From Amoebophrya sp. A120 (Eukaryota > Protista > Dinoflagellata): a DNA stretch of 64,000 nt. Below, one piece after another: positions 8,301-63,800 of the stretch. The translations under genes were made by a program, and so were the position numbers. The DNA lies in assembly GCA_905178155.1 (NCBI GenBank), contig CAJINV010000001.1:13266635-13330634 (forward strand). Reading direction: 5' to 3'. The first letter of the stretch is position 1; each line of letters begins with the position of its first letter. Below the pieces are notes generated by a model, which saw only the letters and a list, made by a program, of their open reading frames with translations, made no database searches and was not told where the DNA came from.

Positions 8301-9708
8301 ATTATCCTCGTCTTTGGAACTACTGCGCTCGGTGCGCTGATCCTCCTCTTCCTCTTCGAAGCTCTGGAAGCTCGTGTTTGTGCCGTCAGATCCTGCTCCT
8401 CCCGGTAAAAATGTGACCGGGCGGCTGGTGGACGAGGAAGAGCCTCCTTGCTGCATCCTTCGGTTCCTCATGTTCGAGGTATGGGTAACAGTATTCCCGG
8501 ACGACGCGGTGGAAGACGACATTGCCGTGTTGCTTCGCATTTTGTAGTTCCCCGAGTCGTTGTACGACCAGTCCCGAGTACCTTTACCACCAGTAGAAGT
8601 GTCTGGCTCCTTGCTCTCCGGCTTCTTCAGCTGCCTTGCGATGGCAATCTGGCGTGGCAAGGACTGCACTTTCTTCAGTCGCGTTGGATGACTGACGTCG
8701 TCACAGGCTGCGACGGTCACCTTCGCACGGTTGCAGTGCTTGTACTGCTCCGAAACGCGAAAGCGCCGGTCGAGATTCAGCGCGCGGTGGATCGCCGTGC
8801 GCATTTCGTTCACAATCGTCCTTCCGACACGAAACCGCAGAACCATAGAGTACCGAACGGAAAGAAGCAGCGTCGCAAGGCTGTAGTTTTTGTATGAGTC
8901 GGATGTTTCACTTTCATTTGAACTTCGGGCATCACTAGTATGAGGAACGAAGACACAGACGCGGCCATCATGCACTGAATTGCAAGTCAAGGAAAAGCTG
9001 GAAAACAAACCCAGTACCAGATACTCAGGCTGCACATGTAAAGTTGCGCCAAGACCGGGTGCTCCAAGATCATTTCGTCCGGCAACGGACCTTCGATGAG
9101 CATGGTAAAGGCCACACCCAAGATCAAAGTGTTGACGATCAACACGGTTTCTGCCTTCTCCGTGATCTGCGACCACTCGTCCCGCAGGTTTTCCCGGATC
9201 GCCGAACGCTATGCATTGCAAATATGTCTGGGTCTGGAAAAATTGGAATCTGTATTGCGTGTCTTGCACTCCTGTAAATTCTGTATTGTGCGACCGACAA
9301 AAGCGCGAATTCTTTGTCATGCAAAAACGCAGTTTCTCGTGCGCATTACACATGAGGAAGCGTCCTGAAAATTTGTCATGCTTGGCTGCACTCAGGAGCA
9401 TCCCCAATCATCGCCACTGAGCATCACAAGTTTCCAGACCCAGACATTTTTACATTTGATAAACGCCGCTCGGAATCGATGTTTTCCTCGTGCTGCACTT
9501 TGGCCTGCAGCATCTCGCGGGCATGCTGGTCGTTGCTCTGCTTCACGTCCACGCGGTGAAACTCCTTGTTGGCTTGCGTCTCGCATTCGTGGATGCGAAG
9601 TGATTGAAGAATGGATTCCTTGTGCAGGTGGTTGGCACGCAGGTGCTCGTTGTATTCGAACCCGAGGTTCACCAGCGGCGTCGCCGCGTCGATGAACGTC
9701 GACAACAT
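5323..9708 (-). CDS. Multi-pass membrane protein of unknown function (~1290 aa); 4 exons, one introner
   Basis: Removing introner 9210-9461 (+1 TSD) and GT-AG introns 8881-9017 and 7952-8073 gives one frame: IDSERRSAIRENLRDEWSQITEKAETVLIVNTLILGVAFTMLIEG...SLSICLATLLLSVRY...GDKKSRSRG...FCFMLGTWILLG. The last join is inferred from phase compatibility only. Confidence 0.65.
9210..9461. mobile_element. Introner-like TIR element, family A (252 bp), TSD AACGC
   Basis: Left TIR TATGCATTGCAAATATGTCTGGGTCTGGAAA; right TIR TTTCCAGACCCAGACATTTTTACATTTGATA. AACGC at 9205-9209 and 9462-9466. Removal restores the ORF. Confidence 0.92.
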
Positions 9709-10725
9709 TTTTTTCTAGATTGCTGTCGTGGTGAAGAGAAGAAGTGTTGTCTATTGCATTCTTGCGTACGTAGTTGTACTTGGCTGAGTATTCGATAACT
9801 CACTGATCATTTCAATAGGACCAGCGGGCAGCGCACAGATATCAAGGCGAGACCTAGATGTATTACGACACCGGGCTTATTAAAGAAACTGTAACCCGAC
9901 AAAGCTCGTGACTGACTCCAATTAGCATCAGGTGTATGCTGGTGCTAGGGATCTTGATCTTCCATCTCGCAATCGCGAGCGGAATCATAACTCCGACATG
10001 GCAACGAAGAAAACGAAACACGTTGGGCACACGACGCGTGGCACTCCAGCACAGCTATGCCGATGATCAACAATTATCACGATCACAAATCGCACGAGGA
10101 CTACGTGACATGAGCTGTCAAGAGTCAGGATCGTCTTCTTGCGTGCACCAATACCAAGCAGCTATCTCCTCCATGCGATTCTCCACTTCTCCTGTCATAA
10201 CCTACACCCTCGACCTTCGGTCCGACCGCAAACATTCCTTCGCATTCCTCTCGATGTCACTCTACTCAGTAAGCAAAATCGAATAAAGATGAAAGTCAAA
10301 GTTCTTGTGACGCGAAAAGGAAAACAAACAATGGCCGCAGTAGACGTATCCTCCTGCGAGATACTACCCACGAAGTAAGCACATTGTGCCAGTTCGTCTC
10401 AAGAATTGCAAAAGAAAATGCAAACGCGTTGAAAGCGCTTGTCCTTCATGAAATGCAAAATCTTGTGACAATTCGTTTGCGTGATTTTTTACCCGAGTGC
10501 AACATCGTATGACAGTTCATTTGTGACACAAGTTGATGTCAGTAAACGTTCATGATTATTTTCATTGTGGTGAAGTAGTACAAGTAGACCATCGGCACGT
10601 ATCATGCGCTTTTGAAATTCATCTATCAGTCTACAGTTATTGCTGTCTCTCATTATGTGTGTTTATGTATCTGATTGATTCTCATCGTGAGTGCAGTATC
10701 ACTTCACAATATTTCATATTTCCTT

Positions 10726-13387
10726 TCAAAGGAATCTCTTCCCACCTCGTCGCCCGCCTCCGCGCTTTTTCACCCGGTTGTTGTACGTCGCCACCGGGTC
10801 CAGCGGTCCGGTTGGCACTACGCCCGCGCGCAAGTCGTGCGCTATTTTCAAACCGGGATGCTTCTGCAGGCCGAGTCCCTCCGCGAGTTCGTAGGACAAG
10901 ACGGGCATCTGCACCATACCACAGCCGGTCAGGATCAGGTACGCCGCCTGGACGACTTGGTCCTCGGAAAGTTGCAGGACGTTGGTGTACAGCTTGAAAT
11001 GGCTAAGCAACGACGCGAACGCGGCGGCGGCCAACGAATTCATGCTGGTCGAAGACACCCACGACATTGTCGCTGCATTCAGGGCTTCGGAATAGTAGTA
11101 CCGTTGCGTGGTATCGAGGAAGTCGACGGTGTTGCGGTTTGTTGTTGAAAGTCGTCCTCCCGATCGGAAGATTTGTTGTTCTTGTTCTTGTGCGCTACTA
11201 GATAAGGAACCTCGCGACCTCGTCGGTTCGGAATTTCTTCCAAGAAGATCATTTGTTCCCGGGGGCAGCGAAGAAACGACATTGTCCGGCAGCACACCAG
11301 CGAGCTGAAAATTCGCACTGAGAACTTGGACAAACTTCGCCTCGTGGTGCGAGAGCAGTAGGTGTGCGCGGCCTGTTTTCCCGGCCCGAGCGGTCCGCCC
11401 CACTCGGTGCACGTACTGCTCGAAGTTGTGCGGCGCGCAGAATTGCAATACCAGGCTTACGTCTGGATAATCCATACCGCGGGCGGAGACATCACTGGTG
11501 AACAGAATCGACGGTTTGCCGTTCGTGCGGAACTCGCAACTGGTGCGCAAGCGCTGGTGCGCGTCCTTGCGGCTGTGGATCTCTAGTACAGGAAAGCGAA
11601 GCAGCTCGCGGAAGAAGGCTGCCATGAACTGTGTAAGTCGAGCGGTTGGGAAAAAAACCATGATCCGGTAATTGCTGGGATTCTGCTTCAACTCCTCAGT
11701 GAGCGCGTAGTGGAGCGCTGGAAGTAAGGTCTCGGCAGACACAAACTCGGCACTTTGATGCATCTTGTCGGTCCGGAGGTAGGTGCTGTCGTTGTTGTTC
11801 TCACTGGCGTCGCAAAGATCATCATCTACTTCTTCGTCGCCCCACTCATCCGTCTCGTCGTGGTTCTCCATTTTTCCAGAAGGTTTTCGATGGTCTGGTG
11901 CACGCCCATTTTCAGCGTCCTCACCGGCGCGCTCCTGGTCACACTCGACCCGCACCACGGAGCCGTCTATCCAGGAAAAAAAGTGTGTAAGTGTAACTTT
12001 CTTTGAGGAACGGCATCACAAATTTGCTCTACATGACAGAGAAAACCTGTCATGCATGGTTTGTAAAGGAAAACACACATGAAAATAGGACTTCATGGCT
12101 GTCTGGCATGACAGGTGTAACTCTGTTGCATCTTCTGCAACACAAATTTACACTTACACACTTTTTTTCTTGCATACCGTCGATGTAGCGCGCAATGACG
12201 TTGGTTTCCAGCGTCGCCGGCAGTGTGGCAGAAAACAGTAAATACCGCAGATTCGGGTTCTGGTTCGCGGTGGTCAAGTAGGAAAGGAGCCGCTTGAGGT
12301 CACCCAGAAAGCCCAAATCGCACAGTCGGTCGGCCTCGTCGAGCACTACGATTTCCAAGTGCTTGAACAAATCGTGGAAGAACAAGGTCTGCTCAAAGTG
12401 GTCCAGTAATCGCCCGGGAGTGGCGATCACGACATTTGGCTTGCGCTTTTTCAGCTCCACACAGTCCATTTTGCGCCCGCGCAAGCCGCCCACGAGGCAG
12501 CACAAACTTGCGTGCGCCGACTCGTGTGGAGGGTTTGCGGCACCTTTGTTGGCAGGGCTAGTGCTGGAAGTTTGCTTTTTCAGTAACGTCTTTTCCGCTT
12601 CGTGGGCGATTTGCATCGCCAGCTCCCGCGAGGGCGCAATTACCAACGCGCGCACACCGGGTGGCGGTATTTCCGTCATTTCCTCATCCTTGCTTTGGTC
12701 AGATGCAAGGAGCGCCGCGGACTCAGCACTGCATCCGTCAACAACTGATGCGCCGTGGTCAGTAGTTGCCCGACTAAAGAGACCAGGCCCTAGGCGCGGA
12801 TCCCCAAGCTGTTTTAGGATAGCAAGGAGATAGCACAACGTCTTGCCACTCCCAGTGGCGGCGCGCACTAGAATAGACTTGGCATCTTCCCGGAACAGCA
12901 CCGGCAGCGCGTGCCGCTGCGTGTCGGTAAATTTGCGAAAGCCGAGCAGGGGCTCGAGGACGGTATCCCGCAGAGTCCTCAACATCGCATCGTCGGGATT
13001 CCGTTTCGCCGAGACGCTGGAAGCGAACGCAGCGATGCTGCTGGCAGCAGGATCTGCAGGCCTTGCTGTCGCAACGGACGGAGTACTCTGGCAATTTTCA
13101 TTTTCTCCGAGCGGCGCCGTACCGCTCGCCGATTCCGATGCACGGGGGCGATACACCACTTTGCTCACCACACCACGGCTTCCGCCCGGAGGAAGAGGGA
13201 AAATCCGATTGCGCCATGACGGTGGAAAAATCTGACGGCGGCTTGCCGAAGGACAGGGGAGCAGAAGATGTTGGAACCCACCGATGCGGCGCCGAAGTGT
13301 CGAGGATCCGGATCCTCGTAAGTGTAGATGAATTACCATTCTCCTAGCCCCGGCGTATCGTCGCGTATGATTTTCATTTTCTATCAA
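10726..13387 (-). CDS. DEAD-box RNA helicase (MSS116/RH31-like), split by an introner
   Basis: Motifs AATGSGKT, PSRELA, TPGRL, DEAD, SAT, then ARGMD and YVHRVGRTARAG. The halves fuse as ARYIDGSVVRVECD after introner removal. Start codon uncertain. Confidence 0.9.
11968..12176. mobile_element. Introner-like TIR element, family B (209 bp), TSD CCGTC
   Basis: TATCCAGGAAAAAAAGTGTGTAAGTGTAA...TTACACTTACACACTTTTTTTCTTGCATA. CCGTC at 11963-11967 and 12177-12181. Collinear with the 57063-57271 copy. Confidence 0.92.
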
Positions 13388-20108: not shown

Positions 20109-20286
20109 TTTCGCTGGCAGTTTGGGCGGAAACGAAGCTAGCAAGGAGTCGCGAAACGGAAAGTTAGAATTTCTGCGGTCGCGGTCGGTTTCGTGATTCT
20201 CCGTAATGAGAAGAAAAACCTTCAAACCTGCAGAATTTTTTTTGTTATTCTTTATAATTGCTCAAGTACTTACAACGCAAGGAACC

Positions 20287-34677: not shown

Positions 34678-36418
34678 TCAAGTCGCCCTTCCTCCAGCTC
34701 GCCTTTCTTGCCGCGACATCCTTCCCGGGGATGGCGAAAATAAAGGCGGCCCGTCGGCCTTATTTTGGCCAGCAGCTGAAAAATCCGGCTGGCCCCGCCC
34801 CCGCTCCGCGCTGTAATCGCTGAAAATACTGCTGGCTTCCTCGTCCTTAAACAGCACGCGACGGCTGCTGTTGGCCGCATTGGGGCTATGCAGACTATCG
34901 TTCTCGTCGTACTCGTCTTCTACGGATTGATCGTCCGCCTGCCCCCCGTCGCGGGTCGGTGAAACAGGACGACTCGGCGTTCGCTCTGCATTCGTGCGCG
35001 CTACATCTGTATTGTTCAGTGTTGACCAATCTTTCCTCAACGTGGTCGAAGGGCAGCGTTTCTTTGGGCTTCAACTTCAAAGAAACACCACAAAACTAAC
35101 ACAAACAGTTTCTCTTGTGGAAGACGTAAACCCACACTCACGAAGCAAAAACAAACATACATGATACCAAGCCGCTTCAATCTTGCGTACAACGCGGTAG
35201 AAAAGCGTCCGCCTAAAATCCAACTATCAAATGTAAAAATGTCTGGGTCTGGAAGAATTCATGTTTGTCATGCTTGTCTGGCATGACCCTTAAATCTGTC
35301 ATGCACATTACCAAAGAGCCCCACTTTTCTGTCATGCAGAAACGTAGTTTGTCACGCAGAATAGGCAACACCTAGAAGCTCAGAAACTTGTCATGCTGAG
35401 CCAGCAATTGTGGCCTCCTCATGATACGCCACGCAGCATCACAAGTTTCCAGACCCAGACATTTTTACATTTGATACCAACAGAGCATGAACAATGCGAG
35501 GGAGCCGACGGCAACCGCAACCCGGAATGCGCCATTCTTCGTGTAGTCCCAAACCGTTCCGAAAACCCCACCCCCGCCTCCACCCCGCTGCGAGGAAGAG
35601 CCGCTCTGGTGCGAGCTACCCGCTCGCGCTCGATGGTGCTGGTGCGAGCGGTGGTGATGGTGCTGCGACGTGGAACTTTCATGCTCTGCCTGCTGCTCGT
35701 AGTGGGCGGCGGGGTCATCGGATGAGAGCAGCGGGTCCACCAGATTCCGAAAGGCGCGGTTAGCGTCCCCGATTGGTCCTGGTTTCTTCTGGACAAATGG
35801 TCTTGTGAGGCCTAAAAATTCGTCATCCTCCGGCGAATTGACGCCCGACAAAATATCGCGCGCTGCGTCCACAGTCGAAGGAGTGAGTTCGGTTCTTTCT
35901 CCGTCTTGTTCAGGACTTTTGGTTATTTTTCGTTGGTTTTCGGCGGACATAATCTCTGCCGAGTCGGGCAACGCTCGTCGTATTATTTGCTGCGATCGCT
36001 GCGGTGTAGAGGCACCACTTTCGGACTGATCATTGCCAAGTGCATCTGCTCTGCTGCCGAAATCACGAGCCTCCGCTGTCCCCGAAGGGAGCAAAGGTTC
36101 GTCCCCAACGTGACTGTTGTGCAGTGTTGTCCCAGCGGTATGTCCTCGTGCTGCTTCCCGCCTCGCATCGGCCTCAATGTCCTCGTTCATTTTGTCGATC
36201 ACAGTCTCCACCGCCTGCACAGAGGGCGGCCGCTCGAGAAGGTTTTGCGGATCGGTCACGGAACCGTCCACGTCCATGTCGGCACGGCGCAGAAGCGAAG
36301 GGTGCTCCGCAGTTGTCGCAGTCGTTAGCCACGGCGACGTGAGAAAAAACGAGAGCGTCGTCGAGCATCTAGCGAAGGAAGGCACTCTCGGCAACGCTGA
36401 TCTCCTGCCGGGCGTCAT
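34678..36418 (-). CDS. Single-pass membrane protein; introner inserted at the TM segment
   Basis: ORF 35465..36418 continues after introner removal as VAVGSLALFMLCWILGGRFSTALYARLKRLGI. A probable GT-AG intron then joins it to 34678..35040. Confidence 0.65.
35225..35476. mobile_element. Introner-like TIR element, family A (252 bp), TSD CCAAC
   Basis: Perfect 30-bp TIR TATCAAATGTAAAAATGTCTGGGTCTGGAA. CCAAC at 35220-35224 and 35477-35481. Confidence 0.95.
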
Positions 36419-38958: not shown

Positions 38959-41716
38959 TCACACCAGTTCGTTGAGGTTGGCAAGATGAATCTTCTCAGG
39001 CGACCACTCCCTATGAGAGTGCACTACTCCCACTTCCCCTCGTTTGTGTTTCACGAACAGCAATACAAGCGTCGCCAAGACTGCAGGTTTTGCAAGACAA
39101 ATACACCCGGGATTGCAGTGCTGTTTGAGCTTCCGGAACTTGTCATGCGAAAAGTGCCAAGAGGCAAAGGATGGATTTGGTATTTTGCATGACAAATGAT
39201 GGGGAGGGGGAGTTGTGCACTCTCATACTCCCAAGTGGCGTCCGTGAAGCTGGCGGACATAACTTTCCTGGCGTAGGCCCGCACAAAGTCCATGATCACA
39301 ACCAACTGCAAAATTTGTGCGGCCATGATAGAATAGCTATGCATTGCAAACATGTCTGGGTCGTCTGGAAGACCAATGCAAGATTTTCCATGAATGTCTG
39401 ACATGAGTGACTCTGAACTCTGTGATGGTTAGAGGGAAACAGAAGATCCTCCTGTCTGTGGTGCAAAAGTGCAGCACTCCAGGTCGTGGAATACGCAAGC
39501 GCAACACAACACATAGGAGCTCAAAAACATGTCACGCTTGCATCAGTGAAGACCCCATCATTGATCGTCTTCCTCATGGTCATCGTTCACAGACTCGCAG
39601 CAAAATTGGAATTTTCCACACCCAGACGTTGGCATTTCATAATAGCCGGTCCAATTGATATCAGGGATGAACCACCACCTGGGCCTGTGGTCGTCTTCGG
39701 GATAAAACTCCTCGGTGGCGAAGCACCTGGTGGTGTGATGAAATGATCGATTCGACTGCTCGCAACTGCAACTTCTAACACCATATTGAATATGGGATCA
39801 ATATTAAACCCCGTATAACCGCTGTAAGGAAGCAAACTTCCGCAACCGCAACCCGAAAACAAGTTTTTGGAAATCAAAGAACCGCCGTTTGAAAAACTTT
39901 CTATGGTAAGAACATATGTACCAGAAAATGAATCCACAGCATCTGCCCACGGTCCAGAAGAGCATGGCGTGTGCCGCCATGGCTTTGATCTTGCCAACCT
40001 TGTATCCCAGAGAAAAAAGCTGGCAGGGCATATTGATATTTGTGATGCAAAAATAAACACACAGAAAAATTTGTCGTGGGTGGCCCCATAGCATGCTGTT
40101 TCGGATATGCAATGCAGATTTTTTTGTGTGTTTATTTTTGCATTACAAATATGCCCTGCCAGCTTTTTTCTGTGTGGTACCTTGTTCATGAGGTACAGCT
40201 GTGGAATGACGCAGAGGCTCTCGCACCACATCCCGATAGCCCACAGGGCGTCAAACCTCCAATCCTGGTTCATGTCCCCTCTGAACGTGTAGCCCGCCCA
40301 GCAGGCAAACAGGAAAAAGGGGAGGAAGGGGCGATCATCGATTCTTCGGGGCGTGCAGGTGTGCGCGTAGCCGCCAACGTGGGGTAGGATTTCCCGCTTC
40401 GCCAGGACGCAGTCTCGCTGCAATCTCGCCAGGGCTTTGGTCACGCTCTTTTGGTTCAGAAACTGCACCGCCTCTCGCTGCAACTGGACCTCCATCGCGC
40501 GCGTCGAGGGAGCCCGTTGGAGGCCGGTGAGTTTGGCGGTTGCGTCCGCGGACACTTTCAATGAGGCTTGCTTTCCGACCAAAAGCAATCCGCGGATCCG
40601 CCTTTCCAAATCCTCGAGCTGCGCGTTCTGTGCCTTCCAGGCGTTCCGGCTCCGCTCTTCGGCAGACAGCCTGGACTTTTTCATCTCCCTCCGCACCGAC
40701 TCGGATTTTTCCGCGTCTTGCTTGAAACTGGTAAACATCAGCCAGCAGATCCCCAGGCAGAAAGAGCACGTGCAAGCTTCGATCGCCGAATAAAAGCTCA
40801 ATCCGGTGCCGTCAATGGGCATATACCCGACGAACAGACACGCAGAAATGAGGCGGGACATGCTCGAAAAAGTCTGCAGTAGAATAAAGGAACGCGAGAA
40901 ACCTGGTTTTGTTTGTTATTTAGTTTTTGTTTCATGTTTATGGTCATGTCTTCATGCGTTTAGTTTTTGTTCCGTGTTAATGGTCTTCATGCGTTTTTGT
41001 CAATCGCACGGGTTGAGAAGTACTAGTACCGGGAGTATACTTGCGTCGAGAGCGACTTCAATTTCAAACACGACGAAGTGACTTGCACATCGCGGATCAA
41101 TGGGCGCCAAGTCGAGCGACGATCCAAAACCAAAATTGTGTCTGAAAAATGCATTCAGGTCGGAGTATAATCGTTCGCTCACACAAAAACTCAAGGTACC
41201 TGCTGCGTTTCCGGTGGAAAGAATGTTGAGCATGATCCCCAGCATGGCAGCGGATTGCATTTTTCGTTCGATTGAGAGCAGTACGCTGAGCTGAAAAAGT
41301 TCCCTGTCCGCTGTGTACAGGAAAAAGGTCAGACCGCAAAACACGAAGGAGTAGAGAGCCCAGACGTAGAAGCGCGCGGCGGCTGTGGTTGACGCCTTGT
41401 CTCGCTCGCCAGGCTGCACAGGTGCAGCATACCCGAACGCTTCCTTGATGCTGCTCCAACAGCTAGCGGGGGACGGAAAAAAGGTTTGTTCCACAACCGG
41501 CCGCTCGGCCCAAACCAAAAGCTTCAACTCCTCGACCCTCTCCTTGGTCAGGTACCGCTCGAGAATGTTGTCGGTCTTTTTCTGAGACGATGTCGTGGAC
41601 GAATTTCTCGAGCGAAAGAAGTCTTCGTCTTGGATCGTTCCAAAACCGTAGTCATCACGAACGTCAAGGGGCCGCCCCTCGAAACAGGCGATGTCGTTGT
41701 AGTTGTAGGCAGGCAT
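38959..41716 (-). CDS. ER lumen protein-retaining (KDEL/ERD2) receptor-like protein; 6 exons, three introners
   Basis: Spliced sequence: NAAGFSRSFILLQ..SRLISACLFVGYMPIDGTG..DALWAIGMWCESLCVIPQLYLMNKVGKIKAMAAHAMLFWTVGRCCGFIFWCFATEEF..DINWTGYSIMAAQILQLVVIMDFVRAY..WEWSPEKIHLANLNELV*. GT-AG introns 40903-41199 and 39727-39921. Confidence 0.8.
39012..39227. mobile_element. Introner-like TIR element, family C (216 bp), TSD CTCCC
   Basis: TATGAGAGTGCACTACTCCCACTTCCCC...GGGGAGGGGGAGTTGTGCACTCTCATA. CTCCC at 39007-39011 and 39228-39232. Confidence 0.9.
39338..39641. mobile_element. Introner-like TIR element, degenerate family A (304 bp), TSD ATAGC
   Basis: TATGCATTGCAAACATGTCTGGGTC(GTC)TGGAA...TTCCACACCCAGACGTTGGCATTTCATA. 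ATAGC at 39333-39337 and 39642-39646. Confidence 0.88.
40003..40179. mobile_element. Introner-like foldback element, family D (177 bp), TSD CCTTG
   Basis: ~65-70-bp inverted arms (AGAAAAAAGCTGGCAGGGCATATT..TTTGTGATGCAAAAATAAACACACA). CCTTG at 39998-40002 and 40180-40184. Right terminus is GTA. Confidence 0.9.
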
Positions 41717-49904: not shown

Positions 49905-51687
49905 CTAATAGTTGTAAGACGTTGAGGTCGTGCCGCCTCCCCTTTGGATCAGAATTTCCTCGTCCCGCGTGAAGGACTTCAGTTCCCCCATTTGCACATA
50001 GTCGTCGAGAATGGTGACGCGGCCGGTCTCCAGTTCGAAAATACTCCCGACGATCGCGACTTCCGGACAGTCGTGGAGGATGTTCTTCAAAATTCCCAAC
50101 TGTTCCACCACGTTGCGACACACGAGGTTCTCCGGCTCCAACTTCCGTTGCACCAGGCTGAGTTGCTTGTCACAGTCGTCTATGGATTGCAAAAATGTCT
50201 GGGTCTGGAAGATTGCAACTTGTCATGCTAAATCCGAATCATGCAGAAATCTGTGTTGCCTGATTACCAAAAGAGGTCCACTTTTGAACAAGTTAGTAGT
50301 AGTAACCATTTGACTCCTGGCGGGTTGGCGTTAGAACAGATTTAGCCTCTGCCAATGCCTGGGCGTTAGAACAGATTTAGCCTCTGCCAACACCCCTAGG
50401 TGGATACTCGCTCCACGTCCTAACTACCACCCGGCCGCATCCGCAAAACCGCTATCGATTGCTTACGCGTAACTACGGCCAGTGGGCGCTACGTGTGGCA
50501 GAACCCCCTTACCATCCAAGCCCGCGAGCAAGGTGGAGTTTCGGTGTGGCCTTGAAGGGCAGAGGCAGTTTCTCATTCTCATGCAGAATAGGCATGAAAG
50601 AGACCGCACAGCCTCCGTCATGCTAGGTCCCGCATTCCAGACCTAAAAAGTCCTGGAAAACCTGCATGACAAGTTCACATTCTTCCAGACCCAGACATTT
50701 TTACATTTCATATCGTCGATTACCGGGTAGCAGCCGAACCACTCACCGTCGTTTTCCAGCGAGCGGCGAATCCAGTCGATCAACATTTTCAGCGGGTCCT
50801 GGCCCGGCAGCGCCTCCGTCTGCGACCTTGTGCGGGTGAGCCGCGTGACACTAACTTCTGAAGGCTCCGACGGAAGGCTCGGCGTACCTCCGTTCAGACT
50901 GTCTTCGCTGTTTACGCGTAGTCGCGGCCTGCTGGAGTTCACGGGCGAGGAGCGCGAAGTGGGCGAAGTCGAACCCGCCGGACGCGGTGCTGAGGCAGCC
51001 GCGATTGCCCCGCACTTCGTGTGGCCCATGACCAAAACAAATTTGGTACCCAGGTGCTGGCAGGCGTACTGGATCTGTAGAAGGTAGTTTTTCCAAAATG
51101 AATCACGCTTGCGACCGCGAAATTTGAGAGAGACAAAAAATGCAACACTGAAGTTGTGCGACTCAAACGCACGTGGATGTGGGTGTGCATCTGCATACCA
51201 CAATCAGTCCATGAAAACATTAGTATACGCTGCCGCCCACACTGGTTCCCACATAGTTTCCAGCGGTTCTGGTCGTGAACATCTCCCCCTCGCACGCATC
51301 ACAGACACCTTGCGGATTGCACCGACTATCCGCGCACCCGATCACCGCCACTGCGGGCCTCTGGCCCTCGGCAACTTGCCGTCGGTGCAGTGCGTTTGCC
51401 CCCTCTGGCTTCGTCTGGAGCAAGCCGTTCATGTAGCGCATATTCCCAGACTCAAGGCCCTTTTTCAGCTCCAGCGCCGTCATTTGCTGGCACAAGTGAA
51501 AGGCGCCCGTGATGGCGCCGCAGTGCTCACACCGTTGCGTGTAGCCCGGGGAGGAGGAGGCACTACTGCTCGGGGGTCGCTGGTCACTATCCGGCGCGGC
51601 GTCGTCCTCGAACTTGCTTGATGGCTTCGAACCAGCAGCCCCGAGCGGCACGGACTGGGTGTGGTGCGCGAAACTCATGTTTGGCAT
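49905..51687 (-). CDS. Beta-class carbonic anhydrase, interrupted by a 532-bp introner
   Basis: Zn ligands in IGCADSR and GHTKCG. GT-AG intron 51075-51228 (GS|IQYA). After introner removal it reads YPVIDDCDKQ..IVGSIFELETGRVTIL. Confidence 0.9.
50181..50712. mobile_element. Introner-like TIR element, family A2 (532 bp) with nested insertion, TSD TCGTC
   Basis: TATGGATTGCAAAAATGTCTGGGTCTGGAA...TTCCAGACCCAGACATTTTTACATTTCATA. TCGTC at 50176-50180 and 50713-50717. Confidence 0.92.
50294..50558. mobile_element. ~265-bp nested insertion inside the introner (possible retroelement 3' end)
   Basis: Absent from the homologous 262-bp copy at 57324-57585. Has (TAG)3 at one end and a 29-bp direct repeat at 50327-50355 / 50362-50390. 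Confidence 0.6.
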
Positions 51688-52953: not shown

Positions 52954-55900
52954 TCACGCTATGACCTGCGATTTCCGCCCTTGTGAGCCGAGGAGTTTTT
53001 TGTACAGCCCGTTCTTGTCGATTAGTTCCTGATGTCCTCCTTGCTCGAGCAAAATGCCGTCGCACATCACGCAGATCAAATCGCAGTTCTGGATCGTGGA
53101 TAAGCGGTGCGCGATCGTCACGGTCAGGCGGTTTTTCGTGTCGAGCTTGTCCAGCGTTTCCTGCACCTCCTTCTCGCTCACCGAATCTAGCGCACTAGTG
53201 GCCTCGTCCAGCAGCAAAATCTGCGGGTTGCGCATCAGCGCGCGCGCGATCGCAATCCGCTGCTTCTGGCCGCCGGAAATTTTGTTCCCCCGCGGCCCCA
53301 GCAACTCGGTCCACGTCAGTTGGTTCGTCCCGGGCGTATCCCCGATGAAATTCACGTTTGCCTGTTCCGCGACCCGCTTCACGTCGGCAGCGCTGAATTT
53401 GGGTCGTTCGTCTACTGGAACGCCGTACAGGATGTTCTCCAGCGCATTCAAGTTGAACAGCACCGGTTCCTGCCCGACGTACCCAATCGACAGCCGCCAT
53501 TTGAGCAAATTCACCGCGGTCAGATCGGCGCTGTTATTCAGGGAGATCTTCCCCTTGTTCACATCGTAGTACCGCATCAGCAACGCCATGATGGTCGATT
53601 TCCCGCTCCCGGACGGCCCGGCGAGCGCGACGGACTTCCCGTTCTGTAACGACAGAGTCAGCCCCTGCAGGATCGGGACGGTTGGCCGCGACGGGTAGGA
53701 GAAAAACACGTCGCTGAAGTCGATTTTTTCCATATCGTAGGAAAAAAGTGTTTCACTGTAAGGATTAGGATTTTGCAAGCTTTGCATCACAAGTTTGTTC
53801 TACACCAAAGAGAAAATTTGCCATGCGAGATTCCTAAGGGAAAACACAGCCAAATCCACTGTCTTGCATGTGTGGCAAGACAAACACTTCTCCGATACAT
53901 TTTCTGCATTACAAGTCTACAGTGAAACAGTTTTTTCTTGCGATATTCCAGTGCCGGCGGGTCCGGCTTGTTCCCGTTGCCCTCCTCGGTTTGGTCAATC
54001 AGAGGCACCCGGTCGGCCAGCTCGAAAATGTCGTGCGCCGCGGCCTTCGCCTTCGCGATGGACGGCATGGCGGCGCCGGCTTGCCCCGCACCCATGCCCG
54101 CAAAGATGATGCACATCACTGCCTTGAACATATCGCCGGGGGCCAGCCCCTCGTCCCGCATCAGCACCGCACCGTACCAGAAGCCGACCACGTACACGCC
54201 AAAAATGATTCCGTTGGAGAAGCCGAAGGCGAAACCGGACGGTAACGCCTTCTTCACCTCCTTGTCACGGACGCCAACCACCGCGTTGGAGTAGGTCTTC
54301 CAGAAGTCGTGCTCCGCACGCATGGCGCGCACGGTTTTCAGGTTCAGCACCACTTCCGCCATGATGCCGCCGCTCGCAATCACCTCCGGCGATTCGGATT
54401 CCCCGCCCATACCCATGATCACCACGAAGAGGATAATCATGGCGATAATCAACGGCGGCAGGCACGCGGTCACGACGGCCGCGAGCTTCCAGGAGGCGAT
54501 GTAGGCGAAGGTGAGGCCGCACACGATCGCGGACAAGGTTTCCACCTTTACGCCTAATTGTTCACCGGCGATGTAGCTCAAGTCGGAGCACTGCGATTCC
54601 AGTGCGGCCGTTAGCTTCCCCGGCGTGTGCTCCGGCTCGTCGAAATAGGCCATTTCCTGTTTCAGGTAGGTGGAAAACACCAAACGTCGCGCACGCATGG
54701 TCATGTAACTGCCCGCGTAGGAGTAGCACCCGTTGGCGAAGCAGTAGGTCAACGGGGCGACGAAACCAATGATGCAAAAGAGCAAGACGGACTTGTTCAG
54801 CTCGTCTTGCATTTTGTTTTTGTCGACGATGTAAAAATCGGTCATCGCTTCGATCAAAATGTAGGCGCAGAGTGGCTGGTAGGATCCGTTGCACAGGGAG
54901 AAAAAGAACCCCAGCGGGTAGTACATCAATTCGTACCGCGTGTTCAAACTCAGCAAGCGCTTCATGGGAACCTGAGAGAAGATTAATTTTGGTGCGATAG
55001 CATCCAGAATGAGACTTCTCACTTTGCTTCTGTAGAAGCAAGTTAGATAGAGTGACACATCACAAACTTGGAGTAAAGTGAGCAAAACGTAGGGTAGTGG
55101 ACATTCTCATTTGTACCGTGTATTCCTTCTCGATCTTCGCAAGCCTTTCCTTTTCCTTCTCCTCTTGCGTCTTTAAAACATCCATCGCCATGAGCCGTTC
55201 CTTCGACGCTGACCGCCCCAGCGTCGCCTCTGCAGCGGGGGTCCCATCTGCAATCGAGCCCTCGGTGACCGCGCCGGCCCCGTCTGCTACGGACATATCG
55301 ACAACGGTGGCGCCCTCGGGTGCACGACTCACCTGCCGCGAGAGCTCTCCGTCCTTCGAGGGAATCCGTTCCTCTGCCATGGAAAGCGCTTCTTGCGTTT
55401 CGGTCAACCGGTAGTAGCCGCCCTTCAGTGCCAGCAGCTCCTCGTGCGTCCCTTTCTCCGCGACAGTGCCCTGCTGCAGGAAAAAAATCTGGTCGCAGTT
55501 CCGCACGGTGGACAACCGGTGCGCGACGACGACAACCGTCAAGTCAGAGTTTTTTGAGAGGCTATCGATCGTCTCCTGCACTAACCTTTCACTCTGGTAA
55601 TCCAACGCCGACGTTGCTTCGTCCAGCAATAACAACTTCGGCTTGCGCACCAGCGCCCGCGCAATCGCGATTCGCTGCTTCTGTCCGCCGGAGAATTGCG
55701 ACCCCGCGGTTCCCGGAAGCGTATCCAGCCCCTCGGGCAAACCGGAGACGATATCCCAGATCTGGGCCTGCTTCAACGCGTCCTTGATGGCCTCATCGCT
55801 GGGCCGGTTCTTCAACCCAAAACACAGATTTTCGCGGATCGAGTAATTGAACAGCACCGGTTCCTGCGCGACGTACCCGATTTGCGACCCTAAGGATTCA

Positions 55901-57757
55901 AAACTCAAGTCCTTCACGTTGATCCCGTTGTAGCAAATCGAGCCGCCGCTCACGTCGTAGAACCGCTCAAGCAGCTGAATCATCGTCGACTTACCGCAGC
56001 CCGATTCGCCAACGAACGCGACTTTCTGTCCTGGGGACACCGAGAAAGACACCCCTTTCAAAACACTCACGTCTTTCCGCGTCGGGTAGGCGAAAGTCAC
56101 GTCGGTCGCGTCGATCCGCAAAGCCCCTTCTCCCTCGAGCTCCTTGGTACCCGGAAGCACGACTGGCTTCTCCACGGTCATCATCCACTTCAGATTCTTG
56201 AGCGCAGGTTTTGCCTCAGCGACCGCCTGGATCCAGGGCGCCACACTGCCGATGCCGAACATGCCCATCAGAACGCAGAAGAAGACCTTCATCACGTCCC
56301 CGCCCGTAAACGCCTCCCCGGTCTCCTGGTTCTTCACTCCGTCCTTCACCAAAATTGCCCCGTACCAGAACGCCAAGCCGTAGAGCAAAAAACACACACC
56401 CCACAGACTCCCGACCTGCAGGCCCACGCGCCCCCCGGACCGCGCTTTTCCGGCCCGGGCGTACTCCAAATGCTCCCCGTACCGCTCCAATTCGGACTTT
56501 TCCGATCCAAACGCCAGCACCGTTTTCACCGCTCCGAAAACCTCGTCCGCGACCGCGCCGGCTTTCACGTAGTACTTCATCGTGCCCCCGTTGATCTCCT
56601 GCAGCGCCATCGCGAAGTAGTACGCGGCGAGCCCCATGAAAGGAATTCCCGCGGACAAAACCAGCGCTAACCGCCAGCTCAAGGCAAACGCGAAGATAAA
56701 TCCGGCAATGAACTGGGCGAGATTCTGCACGGCAAGTGCGAAGTTCTTCCCGAGCGCGTCCTTGATCTTGCGCACATCCGTCATCGCGCGGGACGGCACC
56801 GTCATCGGGTCCTTTTCGTCGAACCACGAGGCGTCCATGTTGAGCACGGCTTTGCAGTAGGCTTCGCGGAATTTGCAGGTTTGTCTCGACCCGGCGACGT
56901 CGTAGAGCCAGGTGAAAATGGTCGCGGTAATCCAGCAGACGATCCCAATCACGCCGAACCAAACGAGCAAATCCATCATTTTGTCGTACATGTCGTTGGC
57001 GTTCATGATCCCGACGTCGAAAACCGCACCGAATACGTACGCGATTGCCGGCTGTCCTACGCTATCCCACGAAAAAACTGTTTCACTGTGATGGTTTTGC
57101 AAGATCCGCATCACAAGTTTGCTACACATGACACAGAAAATTTGCCATGCGCGCTTTCCAAGGGAGAACACGCTTAAAAGTCCAATGCCTTGCAGGTGTA
57201 GCAAGACAAATAGTTCTGTGTTCCATTCTATGCATCACAAGTTCACAGTGAAACAGTTTTTTCTTGCGATATACGCCGTACAGCGTAGCGTTGAACCCGC
57301 CGAACAGGTAGCAGGCCTTGTCCTATCAAGTGTAAAAATGTCTGGGTCTGGAAGAATGCGCGACTTGTCATGCAGCTTTTCCATGACCCATGAAGCCTGG
57401 AATGCAGGACCTAGCATGACAGCTTCTGCGCGATCTCTCTCATGCCTATCCTGCATGAGAAACTCCCTCTCGACTTGGTCAAAACTGGGCGACTTTTGGT
57501 AATCATGCAACACAGATTTTTACATGCTTCAGATTTAGCATGACAAGTTCCAACCCTCCAGACCCAGACATTTTTACATTTGATAGGTCCACCCCGTCTG
57601 CAAATTGAAACAGGTCCTTGAAGCCCACCATGGAGTAGTCCTCCTTCTCCGCCTTTTCTTTCGCACCATTCTTGTCGTCCTTCGCGTCTGGCTGGGGCTT
57701 GGTCGGTGTCACCACGTTGCCAGCCGGAGCGGCGGCGGGGTCGTACGAAGACGCCAT
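52954..57757 (-). CDS. Full-length ABCB1/MDR (P-glycoprotein-type) ABC transporter with three introners and one GT-AG intron
   Basis: Two TMD-NBD halves (GESGCGKST/FSGGQKQR/LLLDEATSALD and GPSGSGKST/ISGGQKQR). Joins FADGVDKACY, LYGVGQPA, ALEKIDFSDV. GT-AG intron 54972-55116. Confidence 0.93.
53733..53945. mobile_element. Introner-like TIR element, family B (213 bp), TSD TTCCA
   Basis: TATCGTAGGAAAAAAGTGTTTCACTGTA...TACAGTGAAACAGTTTTTTCTTGCGATA. TTCCA at 53728-53732 and 53946-53950. Confidence 0.92.
57063..57271. mobile_element. Introner-like TIR element, family B (209 bp), TSD TACGC
   Basis: TATCCCACGAAAAAACTGTTTCACTGTGA...TCACAGTGAAACAGTTTTTTCTTGCGATA. TACGC at 57058-57062 and 57272-57276. 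Confidence 0.93.
57324..57585. mobile_element. Introner-like TIR element, family A2 (262 bp), imperfect TSD TGTCC/GGTCC
   Basis: TATCAAGTGTAAAAATGTCTGGGTCTGGA...TCCAGACCCAGACATTTTTACATTTGATA. Flanks at 57319-57323 and 57586-57590 match 4/5. Confidence 0.9.
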
Positions 57758-58406: not shown

Positions 58407-59513
58407 TCAAGTTTCGTCTCCTACAAGTTCAACAACTTTTGGATAGCCCCCGTCTATTTCGTTGTCGCCCTTCGTATCGACGACTCGAAACCCGAAATCC
58501 CTCGCGCTTGCTCGAAACTTGTCTTCGGCATCAGGCCGGCTCCTTCCAAAGCTGAGAAAGATTCTGAACCTTGGTCTCTTCTGGAGGTGCATGTTTTCTC
58601 GCACAGTGAGGTCACCTCCCGCAGATGAGGCCCTTTTCATTGATACGCCGAGTTGCTCCAAAAGAACGCATATGGTGCGCAGCAGCGGCTCTACCAAATT
58701 CCGGTCGTACACGCATTCAGAGCCCACAATGAAAAAGTCCGACGTGAATGGGCTGCAACTCCCTTTATCGCTTCCAAAATCGTCATGCGTTTTCCTTTCT
58801 TCATGGTCTGCGTCACTTTGTGACTCTCGTGCCTCGTGAGCGTCGACACATATCTCTTTTGCAAGATTGCGTGCGTCCACATTGTCCAGACAACACCAAT
58901 CTAGTCGGCGCACGCTGATTGCCACTTGGCGCTTTCCCGCGCCGTGTTCTATCGGAGAATGATCATGATTGGCCTTTAAATTCGTTTCAGTGATACTCAG
59001 GACTTTCGGATGGTCGGTCAAGTAAATATGGTCTACGTGTCCGTGCGTCTGCTGTGCCAGAATCAACCCCAATGTGCCTGTTCCACACCCGAGCTCAAGA
59101 ACCACGGTTCTTCTCTTATTAGTCCTGAAGCCACTCCCACGAGCTCCTGCGCCATTAGCTTCACCGGTTGGATTGCATCTTGATGCCGGAGTTCCAAGGG
59201 CGTCTGGGTCTGCGAAAGAACTATTTGGTGGGACCTGCTTGTAGTTGTCCTCGGCCACAGTCTTTATACCTGATGTTTCGGTATTTTGCTGCAAGAGTAG
59301 AAGCGGCAAAACCACCTCTGCCAATGCGTTCGTGCCCTCTTTCCAAATCTGGGTTCCGATTTGTTGGCCTGGCCGCTCCACCACATGCACAGCATAACGG
59401 CCCTGGAATGTAAAGACGCTTCTCTTGTCCTGAGCCCGCTTTTCCCGTTCGGCGTGCAAATCCCGCAAAAACGCATTTTGTTCTGCGTACATAGTTTCAG
59501 GCTCAGGCAACAT
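58407..59513 (-). CDS. Protein-lysine methyltransferase (METTL21/Methyltransf_16 family)
   Basis: Motifs IGTQIW, VLELGCGTGTLGL, YLTD, RRLDW, FIVGSECVYD. Confidence 0.8.
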   Translation of the reverse strand: MLPEPETMYAEQNAFLRDLHAEREKRAQDKRSVFTFQGRYAVHVVERPGQQIGTQIWKEGTNALAEVVLPLLLLQQNTETSGIKTVAEDNYKQVPPNSSFADPDALGTPASRCNPTGEANGAGARGSGFRTNKRRTVVLELGCGTGTLGLILAQQTHGHVDHIYLTDHPKVLSITETNLKANHDHSPIEHGAGKRQVAISVRRLDWCCLDNVDARNLAKEICVDAHEARESQSDADHEERKTHDDFGSDKGSCSPFTSDFFIVGSECVYDRNLVEPLLRTICVLLEQLGVSMKRASSAGGDLTVRENMHLQKRPRFRIFLSFGRSRPDAEDKFRASARDFGFRVVDTKGDNEIDGGYPKVVELVGDET

Positions 59514-60857
59514 TGTTGCTACCAAATATAGCCGCCGGGGCGGAGGTAGTGAGGCCGTGGGCGTTTTCTTGCCGGCCGTCGCCTTGGCCGCGCCTTTGCT
59601 TTTTCTGGGCCCGCCATACCGCTGTGCGTAGCGTTAGGCCGCACGGTAGGGCGGCCGCTCGATAAACGTCGCCAATTTTGGCAAATCTCCGAAATTCCTT
59701 TCCGAAAGCCAGCCCTCATGCTATGGGGCCGATCCGGGTGCCACGAGGGGCGCCCAAAAAGCAGAGGAAAATTGGGCCCATAGCACGCGGATTGGCTTTG
59801 CGCGTCTGGGGCGCTTTTTCTTTTTCGCGTTTTTATTTTTCACGCCGGCGCTTTTTGCAAAGCTTCCCAGGCTCTGAAACCGGCGAAAAGGCAGCCGCTT
59901 TCGCGGCCGCCCGAAATGCTCCGAAATCGCGGCCGTGCCATGCTGTTTCGCTGTTCTGATTTCGGGCGCGTTTTTTGCGCGCCCCTTTTTGGGCGCCCCA
60001 AATCGCCAGAAACCAAGGCGGTGGGCGTCTCAGAAGGGCGCCCCTTTTGCCGGCTCCCCTGCGTCGTTTTATCAAGTGCGAATCGATAGTCTTCGACCGG
60101 GCTTGTTTGATATCAAAGCCCCGGCCGCTTGATAGTAGTTGAAAACTTTTTATGTCAAAAAACGCTTCCGGCCGCTTGAAAACTGCCGGGCGTTTTTCAC
60201 GGTAGGTGGCAAAAAAACTCCCCGGTTAGAACCGTTCGGTGACCTCACTACATACAACTGTCGAGAAACTACATTCTATCAAAAACACCTACTGCTCGTT
60301 GTGCATGATTGGCCTGTGAAAATCAAACGCGGTGCGGCAGCGGTTTCTTGACTCTCCTCTCGTGGGTAAAACCTCCATCAAGAAACATTCTTCATCTCCT
60401 TGTTGGTTGATTTTTCATCTCTTGGTCAACAGAGGGAGGGACACTGTGCAGTTTTTTCCTGTGTACGCTTTGTTGCGGCTATTCAATTAAAATTTTTCAA
60501 CTTTTCGTGCTACAGCTGTTCCAAAATTTATGTACAGGGAAACCACATCAACTACATCATCTATCATCCATCAGACTGTGCAGATACTTTCCTGGTACTA
60601 ATATTGCTATCCAATGCATAGTGAACAAAAATGGTATACATTGTGTCGGTGTGTGGGTGTGCTAGTGCCTATGATAATCATGTAATTCAAATAAAGTCAA
60701 ATGGTCCAAATTCAAAAAGTAGATGCTAGAAAAAAATCCGTGACCTGCTTGTGTTAGGTCTTCATTCTGAGACAGAGCCAGAAGCTTCGTAGTATCGTAC
60801 TAGTATCGACGTCACATTCATTTTTATCGCTTTGCGCTTGCCCTCTGAGGAAAAACC

Positions 60858-63800
60858 TCACAACAGTTCCGACGGCACCCCGCGCTTTCCAAACTTCTGC
60901 AAGGCTGTCATGATCCGCAGTAGCGCCCCCGGTGCGGCGGACTTCGTTTCTACCGCCGCAGTCGATGCTGCTTGCTTCGATGGGCTGGATTTCTGCTTCG
61001 CCGACCGTAGCAGACTCTCCCGACTAATGCGCATGGACGGCGACAGACTGCGGAAGGAATTCATGCTTGTTCGCACAGGTGTTGAAGCAGGCTCAGCAGT
61101 TGTGCTTTCCGTTATTTTCTGCTGCTCCTCCTCGCCACTGCTAGCCGTTGTCGTGACCAGTTCCCCAAATTCGGACTTCCAGGCCTCCTCCACAAGCGGG
61201 AACTTATGCAGGTGCTCTTGCACGACGGAGCTGTCGAACCGCTCGAGCGCCGACAGCCCCCCGCGAACCTCCTCCACGGACGGGGGCGGGGGGTCGAGCT
61301 TCTTCTGCTTCGGTTTCAGCCAGTCCGGCATCTCGTCGTAGACCCGCTCGTTCTGCACGCGGATCAGCTTTTCCCGGACCGGTGGCACGAGCGCGAGTTG
61401 CAGGTTGTTCGCCTCCGGTTCCTCCACCTCGTCTACAATTGGAGATAAAAGTTTGTAGTCCACGTCGTCTTCGGCGAAACTGGAGCCAATTTCCTTCACG
61501 GAGTCAATCACCTCCTTCTCCTCCTCGATGGTCAGCGGCCGCGGCTTCGGCGGCTTGAAGGGCAACTTCGCGCGCGTCGGTTTTTTCGCGGACTTCACCC
61601 GATGCTGCGTGAACGCCTTTCCTAATTGCGCCATCGGGATCACGGAGCGCGGTCGTTCCAGTTTCTTCTTCGTCACCGCCGGCGGCGGCTCGATGCGCAC
61701 CACCGCGGGCGAGGAGACCGCGCGCTTGTACTTCTTCGTGTCAACGATCGGGTGGGCCGGGAAATCCTCCGCACGTATGGCGCTCTCAACTGTTACATTC
61801 TCAACTGTTACATGATTTGTCATGCAAATTTACCACCAAGATCGCCACGATTAAGCTGCTTCGCATGACAAACATCCGAAGGGCTAAACAGGATCTAAAT
61901 CTGTGCCAAATCTGTAATGCAAAAGGCGCATCCTTCCTCCTTTCACTTTCGCCGTTCTTGCATTACAAATCCACGTAACAGTTGAGAATGTAACGTTTGA
62001 GAACGCCATAGCACGGTAAACGTCCTTTGAATACGCCGTCCAGAAACAGCGCGGGGAAACCAACTCGACACCCTTGCCCGGTATGGAACTGTCAGGATCG
62101 AAATCGACAAAATCGAAAAATTTGTAATGCGTGAAATGTAGAGCACGTATGGCCTGTGTTGGGGAGCAAGCAAATGAGACCGGTGGCAAGCCTGTTTAGG
62201 GGAAGGCGTTGCGCTGCCAGAGTACCATGACAGGAGCAGTCTTCTTTGCCCAAACAGCATGACAGACTGGATTTTAGTGCTTCCGAAATTTGTCATGCGC
62301 CACTTGGAAACTGAGGCTCCAACTGGTATCGATTTTATGCATCACAAGTTTTTCGATTTTGTCGATTTCGATTCTGACACTTCCATACCCGGACTTGGGT
62401 TGTTAAAACCAATCACATACGCCGGATCCTGCAGGAGATAAACCTCGATTTCCTCGTCCGGACAGAACTGCTTGAAAGTATGGAGTCTGCGGTTGTTCAG
62501 CGACCAGAGTGATCCGTCCTTCTCGTTTCGAATCACCCAGATTTTCGGAATGTCGCGCACCTGCGTGACGCCCTGGTCCAGCTCGTTCAAAGTCTGGTAG
62601 ATGGACCGCCCGTCGTGGAATCGAGTCCGGATGCTGCCCTGCGTGAAGTTGATGTTTTTCGGTTTTTCCCAAATCACCACTTTGAGAACCTTCCTAACCG
62701 GCGCCTTGTAGACCGGCGTGGGACTGAGCGACGCAGCGGCGGAACGCGCTCGTGAAGTAGAACGCCGCGGAGTTTGGAGCACTTGCAGTTCGGAAGATTT
62801 CTTGTCGTCTGTGAGCGTTTCGTGGCCAGAGTTTTCTGCGATGCTGGCATCGGCCTTGTTTTCCTTCTCAACACGAAGCGCGATGTCGCTTTTCGTCACG
62901 CGGAGCGCGTGGTCTTGCGGATCGGCTGTCCTGTTGCTTGTTTCCGGTTTCGTTTTGCTGACACCCTGCAATCGCAGTTGGTCCAAGACAGGCACAACCG
63001 GATTTGCTCGATACTGCTGATCGTTGAAGGCTGAGTGTCCCCCCTGCGACGTGATTCGGGACGCGGCCACCGGAACTTGGGCCTCTGGGGGAATGTGCGT
63101 CTGATGCGGCTGATACACAGCCGGGAGCGGTTTCATCTCGTCGCCTGCCATCAGGCTGCTGAGCATGGTGAACTGGGCAGGCTGCAGCGCACTCATCATG
63201 ATCCGGTTTTGCGTTGCAACCACCTGCGCACTCTGCGCACGCCGCATCTGCCGCTTCTTGGCCTCGACGTCGTCCTGCATCACTACTATATCACGGTTTT
63301 CGTCCGACTGCTCTTCTTCTGACGTCGTGTTCGGCGCGGTGGTTGTGCCATTCACACCCCCTCCCGCTTGTGCTGCTGAACTCGGTCGCAATGCAGATTG
63401 CCCTTGGACGTACGTATTTTGATGCTGGCTCACCATCTTGATGTGTTTCCAAGCAGTTTTGCTCTTGTCTTCTTTGGTTTTCGAAGGTGATGGCGCTGCA
63501 CTACCAGACGCTGAACTTGACGACACCGCCCCAGCAGACTGCGGTCGTGATTTCCGACCACCAGTAGACGCTGCGGGTCTACCCGTTGTCACAGACTGCC
63601 GCTTCAAGCTAGTACCGAGAAACAGGTCCGAGCTGTATCCAAGCGCTGCAAGTTTCTCTTCGGTGAAGGCGGCGATGGAAAAGTCCTCCTGCTCTAGGCT
63701 GCTGTGCTGCCTATCCTTATCGTTATTCCTCTCTCGCGTTGTCGTAACTTTCGTACCGTCCTGCCGCTCAATGACGTACTCTTCATCGGTCGGCGTTTCA

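Follow-up and report, generated by a model that had tools for sequence, protein, structure and literature searches.

A conserved internal motif shared by introner families with different terminal inverted repeats in Amoebophrya sp. A120

Whether introner families with different terminal inverted repeats (TIRs) are served by one common signal is the question raised by a 64,000-nucleotide stretch of the dinoflagellate Amoebophrya sp. A120 (GenBank assembly GCA_905178155.1, contig CAJINV010000001.1, positions 13,266,635 to 13,330,634, forward strand), hereafter called the window. Text passages of Farhat 2021 (PMC7789003) describe the A120 introners as non-canonical introns of about 240 nt that form a hairpin, with short direct repeats and an inverted repeat composed of TAT, 7 variable nucleotides and AAA. 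According to the same passages there are 1,954 families with direct repeats of 3–5 nt, mobilization by a general transposase is ruled out, and introner movement and splicing are stated as open. The initial annotation of the window proposed that otherwise unrelated families share one internal word, YTGTNATGC, as the binding site of a single trans-acting transposase or excision/splicing factor, with the TIR itself free to vary.

Results

The motif is concentrated in the TAT…ATA elements of the window

A search blind to the motif, based on local inverted repeats and on TAT…ATA ends flanked by 5-bp target site duplications (TSDs), identified 13 elements of 177–532 bp in the window. All 13 start with TAT and end with ATA, and the 5-bp duplication is perfect in 12 of them. 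A GT-AG reading fits element D alone, and no fixed dinucleotide suits all 13 elements. The window contains 42 exact matches to YTGTNATGC compared with 3.52 expected from 100 dinucleotide shuffles (maximum 8), indicating a clear enrichment over background. Twelve elements with a total length of 3,115 bp hold 39 of the 42 matches, which corresponds to 12.5/kb versus 0.05/kb elsewhere, and dinucleotide shuffling of the elements yielded a mean of only 0.5 matches (maximum 4, n=500). No exact site is present in 11 canonical introns (1,803 bp) or in a 738-bp repeat without TAT ends (59520..60257). The proposal that the motif occurs in nearly every element and is rare elsewhere is thus borne out, and every motif coordinate first quoted for it (9314, 9373, 9421, 12013, 57108 and others) is an exact match. 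As also first described, the motif is weakest in the degenerate copy at 39338..39641, which has no exact motif and four one-mismatch sites. In 7 of the 13 elements each end has an inward exact motif no more than about 42 nt away, and in four (A9210, C39012, B53733 and B57063) this holds for one end only. Neither end of B11968 or A39338 has one, B11968 having a one-mismatch site 31 nt from its right end, so that the description of the motif as often lying just inside the TIR in inverted orientation is a fair one. The elements are as follows (motif positions with orientation).

9210..9461, family A (subfamily 1) introner; TSD AACGC; exact motifs 9314+, 9373+, 9421-; outside RNA-contig coverage.
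11968..12176, family B introner; TSD CCGTC; motifs 12013-, 12047+, 12106-; outside RNA-contig coverage.
30513..30764, family A introner in the orientation opposite to 35225; TSD GCGTC; 7 exact motifs; skip of 257 nt (252+5) in 2/4 runs.
35225..35476, family A introner; TSD CCAAC; perfect 30-nt TIR; 5 exact motifs; skip of 257 nt in 4/4 runs; fold z -7.7.
39012..39227, family C introner; TSD CTCCC; motifs 39140+, 39187-; skip of 221 nt in 4/4 runs.
39338..39641, degenerate family A introner; TSD ATAGC; TIR 16/25; no exact motif; skip of 309 nt (304+5) in 4/4 runs.
40003..40179, family D introner, near-palindromic; TSD CCTTG; motifs 40040+, 40140-; readable as a minus-strand GT-AG intron; skip of 182 nt in 4/4 runs.
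50181..50712, family A (subfamily 0) introner; TSD TCGTC; motifs 50220+, 50664-; skip of 537 nt (532+5) in runs X3 and X5 but absent from the DNA-like run X1.
53733..53945, family B introner, inside an ABC transporter gene; TSD TTCCA; motifs 53784-, 53906-; X5 record 14 joins 53727 to 53946.
57063..57271, family B introner; TSD TACGC; motifs 57108-, 57232-; an RNA contig piece ends at 57057 (one side).
57324..57585, family A (subfamily 0) introner; TSD TGTCC/GGTCC; motifs 57365+, 57414-, 57538-; no skip seen in RNA contigs.
61776..62010, family E introner; TSD GCACG; convergent motif pairs 61817+/61863- and 61912+/61960-; removal deduced from the piece coordinates of X3 record 12.
62082..62387, family F introner; TSD CCCGG; motifs 62122+, 62257-, 62290+, 62339-; removal deduced from the piece coordinates of X3 record 12.
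59520..60257, negative control: 738-bp multi-copy repeat without TAT/ATA ends and without the motif.

The introner at 11968..12176 lies in a helicase gene on the minus strand, where it separates the DEAD exon from the Helicase_C exon; a search with the DEAD-box part yielded no close relative with a name. The recognizable genes and spliced introns of the window are all on the minus strand, like the co-oriented gene blocks described for Amoebophrya. At 50181..50712 the interior is enlarged by about 270 nt, in which a stretch of about 30 nt is duplicated in tandem. The addition is likely a nested foreign repeat, and removal of the element is still precise. The negative-control repeat contains an internal 15-bp inverted repeat (59747–59999), has no clear TSD and an 88% identical copy in locus L064, and is close in length to the published A120 fam26 (730 bp). 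Two weak TAT…ATA candidates, 2918–3631 (TIR 15/25) and 4390–4566 (TIR 13/25), may be old relics or chance; a stray exact motif at 3278 falls inside the former.

The elements are precisely removed from RNA-type contigs

The RNA evidence consists of contigs from runs guessed to be RNA, all from one sample of one study. The same contigs skip 11 GT-AG introns and therefore behave as spliced RNA. Exact removal of the element together with 5 nt, i.e. one copy of the duplication, was observed directly for 7 of the 11 covered elements (30513, 35225, 39012, 39338, 40003, 50181 and 53733). For 61776 and 62082 removal follows from coordinate arithmetic, 57063 is supported on one side, and no skip was seen for 57324. 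The elements are kept in the DNA-like run X1, where their summed contig depth, which is not a copy number, exceeds that of unique DNA by orders of magnitude. The motif-poor copy at 39338–39641, with 0 exact sites, is still skipped in all four runs and still folds with a long terminal stem (z -2.9 compared with -7.7 for a young copy). Elements of subfamily 1, including those with asymmetric motif arrays, are spliced whichever way they are oriented. The raw RNA run X9 was uninformative, its matches being confined to repeats and 99% of the reads running on into unlike sequence.

A 3' splice site of the form ATA|G was considered but is not supported: 9 of the 13 window TSDs are G-first on the transcript strand, but among 313 elements 88 are G-first and 84 C-last, with no excess. 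A further 443-nt skip with non-canonical ends (44202–44646), seen in a single RNA contig from one run (side 30 nt), lacks both TIR and motif; either a chimera or a non-canonical intron free of the motif may explain it.

The motif is general in a related assembly

A scan with the family A TIR resulted in 144 loci, all from assembly JACKZZ01 (about 600 kb merged), in which the best matches of the window elements are 85–97% identical. Calling elements without reference to the motif (TAT…ATA, perfect TSD and a TIR of at least 15/25) yielded 322 elements, 11 of them in the window, compared with 2 matches for a displaced-TSD null. A 4,757-bp call in locus L065 spanning RPB1 exons was false and was removed before counting. 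Family A is over-sampled by design (155/322), with the other families entering as neighbors. The elements form 14 TIR clusters, and 288 of them belong to 17 subfamilies with three or more members. The motif is present in 301 of 310 locus elements, with at least two copies in 270, and in all 17 subfamilies. The initial proposal is supported in that the motif is a conserved, positioned signal common to families with unrelated TIR positions 11–30. The commonest interior 8-mers across the 17 subfamily consensuses are all motif words (GCATGACA in 14/17), and the motif density is 10.7/kb in element-like DNA versus 0.27/kb elsewhere.

Refinement on these elements gave AAW-Y-YTGT[C>G>A]ATGC, with an A-rich 5' flank. 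The middle base at 941 sites is C in 499, G in 282, A in 152 and T in 8, indicating that T is almost excluded; the word first proposed is retained, but its free N is not. TAT is found at 34/34 consensus ends and A at positions 11–14 in 28–32 of the 34, and a boundary search blind to TAT returned 5 bp plus TAT as the top class (279 of 598 calls). Motif count does not correlate with TIR score in four families, and its correlation with best-match identity reaches significance in family 1 alone (rho 0.49), being marginal in family A. Of 15 convergent-pair matches in viral contigs, none falls within a TAT…ATA element bearing TIR and TSD, and all were treated as chance.

Two locus elements have unusual interiors. 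A family A element in the RPB1 gene (L065:11017–11988) carries an insert of about 700 nt whose flanking direct repeat of about 19 nt includes the motif, and a family F element (L011:1603–2034) encloses a 111-bp inverted-repeat segment that has TAT…ATA ends and a 5-bp duplication of its own and may be a nested insertion. The related assembly also contains a C-5 cytosine DNA methylase gene (PF00145; L012:2628–6083). The RPB1 of locus L065 is of alveolate type, matching named alveolates at 61–64% and a EukProt entry at 86%, with no named Amoebophrya match; the lineage of the assembly is judged from the features of its elements.

TIRs diverge on shared interiors, and the two ends of an element match

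Homology between families was assessed with the motifs and 4-nt flanks held fixed and the remainder shuffled (2000 shuffles for consensuses, 1000 for window copies). Interior homology was established for three pairs with different TIRs (0/2000 shuffles each): family F with subfamily 3, subfamily 6 with 9, and subfamily 4 with 13. This indicates that TIRs diverge on a shared interior. BLAST likewise found a family A interior under another TIR (80% over 211 nt). For families C and E the consensuses align end to end and gave 3/2000, the window copies 130/1000, and among 136 comparisons this homology is suggestive; an apparently stronger signal (z 8.5 with a narrow mask, 60 shuffles) weakened with a wider mask and was downgraded. 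TIR positions 11–30 are identical at only 7–8 of 20 sites for F versus subfamily 3 and for C versus E. The initial description of the families as otherwise unrelated is only partly right. Of the 26 cross-family pairs of window copies, 24 have interiors without similarity at p < 0.005 outside the motif scaffold, but the three pairs above are homologous; the motif is nevertheless not confined to globally homologous families. A loose threshold of z >=4 links 14 of the 17 subfamilies, and common descent of the whole family set is plausible.

A TSD is present for 372 of 400 same-family end pairs compared with 0 of 12 hybrid-end pairs. Changes at TIR positions 11–30 are concerted at both ends (90 shared versus 50 expected, maximum 79 in 2000 permutations), whereas those at positions 4–10 are not (82 versus 72). 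The TIR is therefore free to vary between families, as proposed, but not within an element, where both ends must match. In family A, termini 4–10 outpace the interior in close pairs (0.155 versus 0.085), left and right alleles assort independently (identical in 19/155, 21.5 expected), and one terminal allele (TAT-GCATTGCAA) is a one-mismatch copy of the motif. Short joints in DNA contigs (62313 to 53898 and 57355 to 62281) hinted at module swapping, but mosaic elements are disfavored, with 0/313 having halves from different groups and no TSD in the 12 hybrid-end pairs; the joints probably represent unsampled relatives.

The motif is constrained in sequence and position

In 17/17 subfamilies the columns of the motif show higher conservation than the other columns of the interior. 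For 140 disjoint element pairs, with bins set by independent columns, the divergence of the motif stops rising at about 0.065, whereas that of other interior columns increases from 0.085 to 0.31. The motif/other ratio per bin is 0.42, 0.49, 0.43, 0.31 and 0.21, i.e. the motif evolves 2–5 times more slowly. Such a plateau is expected if copying lineages keep the motif while inserted copies drift. Consensus sites less than 50 nt from an end all lie at 31–32 or 39–43 nt (18/18), with no site in the gap, and the nearest tandem spacing is 31–33 nt in 14 of 23 cases. This geometry would be DNA-like, corresponding to 3–4 helical turns from the ends and 3 turns between sites. A strict 32/40 asymmetry resembling a 12/23 rule was rejected, as it occurs in subfamily 1 only, with other subfamilies at 39/41, 41/42 or one-sided. 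In 31 of 105 family A elements the two end motifs agree at their degenerate base, compared with 33.8 by permutation, and the offsets are equal in just 1 of 105. The end motifs thus neither co-vary nor sit at equal offsets, indicating that they are not an extension of an RNA stem.

Discussion

Function of the motif

On balance, the motif is probably a double-stranded DNA site for a single trans-acting machine that would copy non-autonomous TAT…ATA introners, likely a Ginger/integrase-type DDE transposase or a helper of one. A DNA-level mobilization site is likelier than a splice signal because the copy free of exact motifs is spliced, both orientations are spliced and the end motifs show no stem co-variation. 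Of the two factors initially envisaged, a transposase and an excision/splicing factor, the latter is disfavored by the skipping of 39338 in four of four runs, by splicing in both orientations and by the lack of co-variation between the end motifs. In the proposed mechanism, arrays of sites 3–4 helical turns from the ends and 3 turns apart would load the protein, which would then place the cut at the invariant TAT…ATA ends and give rise to the 5-bp duplication. The family-specific part of the TIR would only need to match between the two ends. In the transcript, the TIR would form a stem joining the exon ends, from which the element and one duplication are removed as observed in the contigs. A more specific form of this idea, in which the enzyme reads TAT…ATA plus the phased internal YTGTVATGC and the rest of the TIR is kept by self-complementarity, doubling as the splicing stem, is put forward tentatively.

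Several observations weigh against a DNA site for one mobilizing machine. The motif is already 2-fold more conserved in the closest pairs (ratio 0.42), and selection on it after insertion, for splicing or chromatin, could also have contributed. The skipped copy at 39338 retains four one-mismatch sites, the contigs are blind to splicing efficiency, and all of the RNA evidence has the single origin and guessed status given above. The Rayleigh test is not period-specific (R 0.45–0.51 for periods of 9.5–11.5) and subfamilies that are related do not count as independent. Inward sites within 60 nt are missing from most ends of families 3 and 6, and family B has one at one end only. TIR positions 11–30 are conserved within families (ratio 0.5–0.7), so that family-specific transposases with a shared host factor would fit equally well. 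The search for the factor itself was negative: no transposase or integrase family was found among the 22 window open reading frames (ORFs) or the 115 longest of the 311 locus ORFs of at least 190 aa, PF00665 (rve) had no match in these scanned ORFs, and no long coding element within 6 kb is present in the approximately 600 kb of loci plus window. Text passages of Farhat 2021 (PMC7789003) likewise report no transposase in A120.

The concerted change of TIR 11–30 at both ends (90 versus 50, maximum 79), its conservation within families and the lack of hybrid-end elements would also be accounted for by a host DNA-binding or chromatin protein, such as an IHF-like bending helper or a nucleosome/DVNP-positioning factor, that aids several TIR-specific transposases. 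The roughly helical motif spacing agrees with such a protein, and passages of PMC10201428 provide a precedent in the IHF dependence of a Tn7-like element. We regard this explanation as rather unlikely, since it needs many transposases, none of which is reported in A120 or found in the ORFs scanned here, the invariant TAT and 5-bp TSD of all families suggest one catalytic enzyme, and the motif is nearly absent from host DNA (0.05–0.27/kb). The motif could instead be an RNA signal for an excision factor of non-canonical introns, for example a protein replacing the U1 reported missing in passages of PMC7789003. In favor of this, all elements tested proved to be introns, conservation of the motif extends to the closest pairs, and the occurrence of the motif in both orientations in most elements would give a strand-specific reader a site in every case. 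An RNA signal, although like the host factor a serious rival, is unlikely, as the copy without an exact site is skipped in 4/4 runs, asymmetric arrays are spliced either way round, the end motifs do not co-vary as a stem would, and sites cluster at 31–33 and 39–43 nt as for double-stranded DNA.

Homologous interiors under different TIRs, and the links between 14 of 17 subfamilies at z >=4, might suggest a functionless relic of a common ancestor of all families. This possibility is very unlikely and is largely refuted by motif columns that evolve 2–5 times more slowly than the neighboring interior; in addition, 24 of 26 cross-family window pairs lack interior similarity (p < 0.005) beyond the motif scaffold, and the sequence is kept although number, orientation and position differ by family. 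The word is rich in TG and CA, as a by-product of composition (TG/CA richness from CpG decay, AT-rich interiors) would be, but this explanation has practically no probability left: it is refuted by the dinucleotide shuffles (0.5 versus 39 observed), the avoidance of T at the middle base (8/941) and the fixed positions.

Relation to known systems

Canonical Ginger elements have TG…CA termini and a TSD of 4–5 bp, and hAT elements have an 8-bp TSD. The 5-bp TSD found here fits the former but the TAT…ATA termini do not, and the 5-bp duplication is unlike that of hAT. The elements would thus work like Ginger rather than belong to Ginger. With their TIR and TSD, high copy number and lack of a transposase ORF they also resemble miniature inverted-repeat transposable elements (MITEs). 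The supplement of Gozashti 2025 (PMC12130899) lists, in the files searched, A120 fam38 as "Ginger, 5-bp TSD, TA/TA termini", both features being shared with the elements described here, although fam38 lacks the expected Ginger termini; it is 808–810 bp long, with ORF remnants and integrase-related (Copia/Gypsy-like) homology. This Ginger-like annotation is the best lead to the factor. The lengths of A120 families in the same files (about 149, 209, 252–261, 278 and 305 bp) match those of our elements. The TAT ends, A-run, short direct repeats, hairpin structure and non-canonical splicing agree with the A120 introners in the passages of PMC7789003; in contrast to that account, all families here share a duplication of 5 bp and are united by a single internal motif that follows a spacing grammar.

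Precedents for subterminal sites are given in parts of the literature on Lemi1/Emigrant (PMC1636448), the Hermes BED domain (PMC10368747) and the TnsB site arrays of the Tn7 family, which have helical-pitch spacing (PMC10201428). Like these systems, the elements combine a terminal signature with repeated internal sites in both orientations, often asymmetric, for which spacing matters. As with subterminal transposase sites in general, the repeats lie in both orientations at set end distances and are more conserved than the interior, and binding is predicted here. Whereas the sites and TIRs of the precedents, as described in those parts, belong to one cognate transposase family, the site described here crosses unrelated TIR families, and its carriers, unlike the precedents, are precisely spliced non-canonical introns. 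MITE-derived introns of Fritillaria, as covered in passages of a review (PMC11282704), similarly have a TIR and TSD and are non-canonical, but they have preferred splice dinucleotides, whereas no fixed dinucleotide is found here.

The motif does not appear in the text passages or supplement text of Farhat 2021 (PMC7789003; "ATGC", 0 matches; figure logos such as those of Figs S24–S25 were outside this scope) or in supplement files 1–12 of Gozashti 2025 (PMC12130899). No account of it was found in the parts covered of the literature on Amoebophrya introners and non-canonical introns, on Syndiniales introner transposases or in reviews and surveys, and a search for TGTCATGC with transposons gave nothing relevant by title among the matches listed. 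The shared motif is real, general and constrained and appears to be undescribed, the elements and the subterminal-site design being already known.

The presence of one cis-acting word in nearly all TAT…ATA families suggests a single system. The motif provides a bait for pull-down experiments and a rule for finding the autonomous element, namely an ORF between TAT ends with phased motifs. Mutation of the motif could separate copying from splicing, which makes introner mobilization testable. If the enzyme does read only TAT…ATA and the phased internal motif, with the rest of the TIR kept by self-complementarity, one mobilizer could spawn thousands of self-removing intron families, and this would resolve the paradox, evident from published work, that about 2,000 families exist without a transposase.

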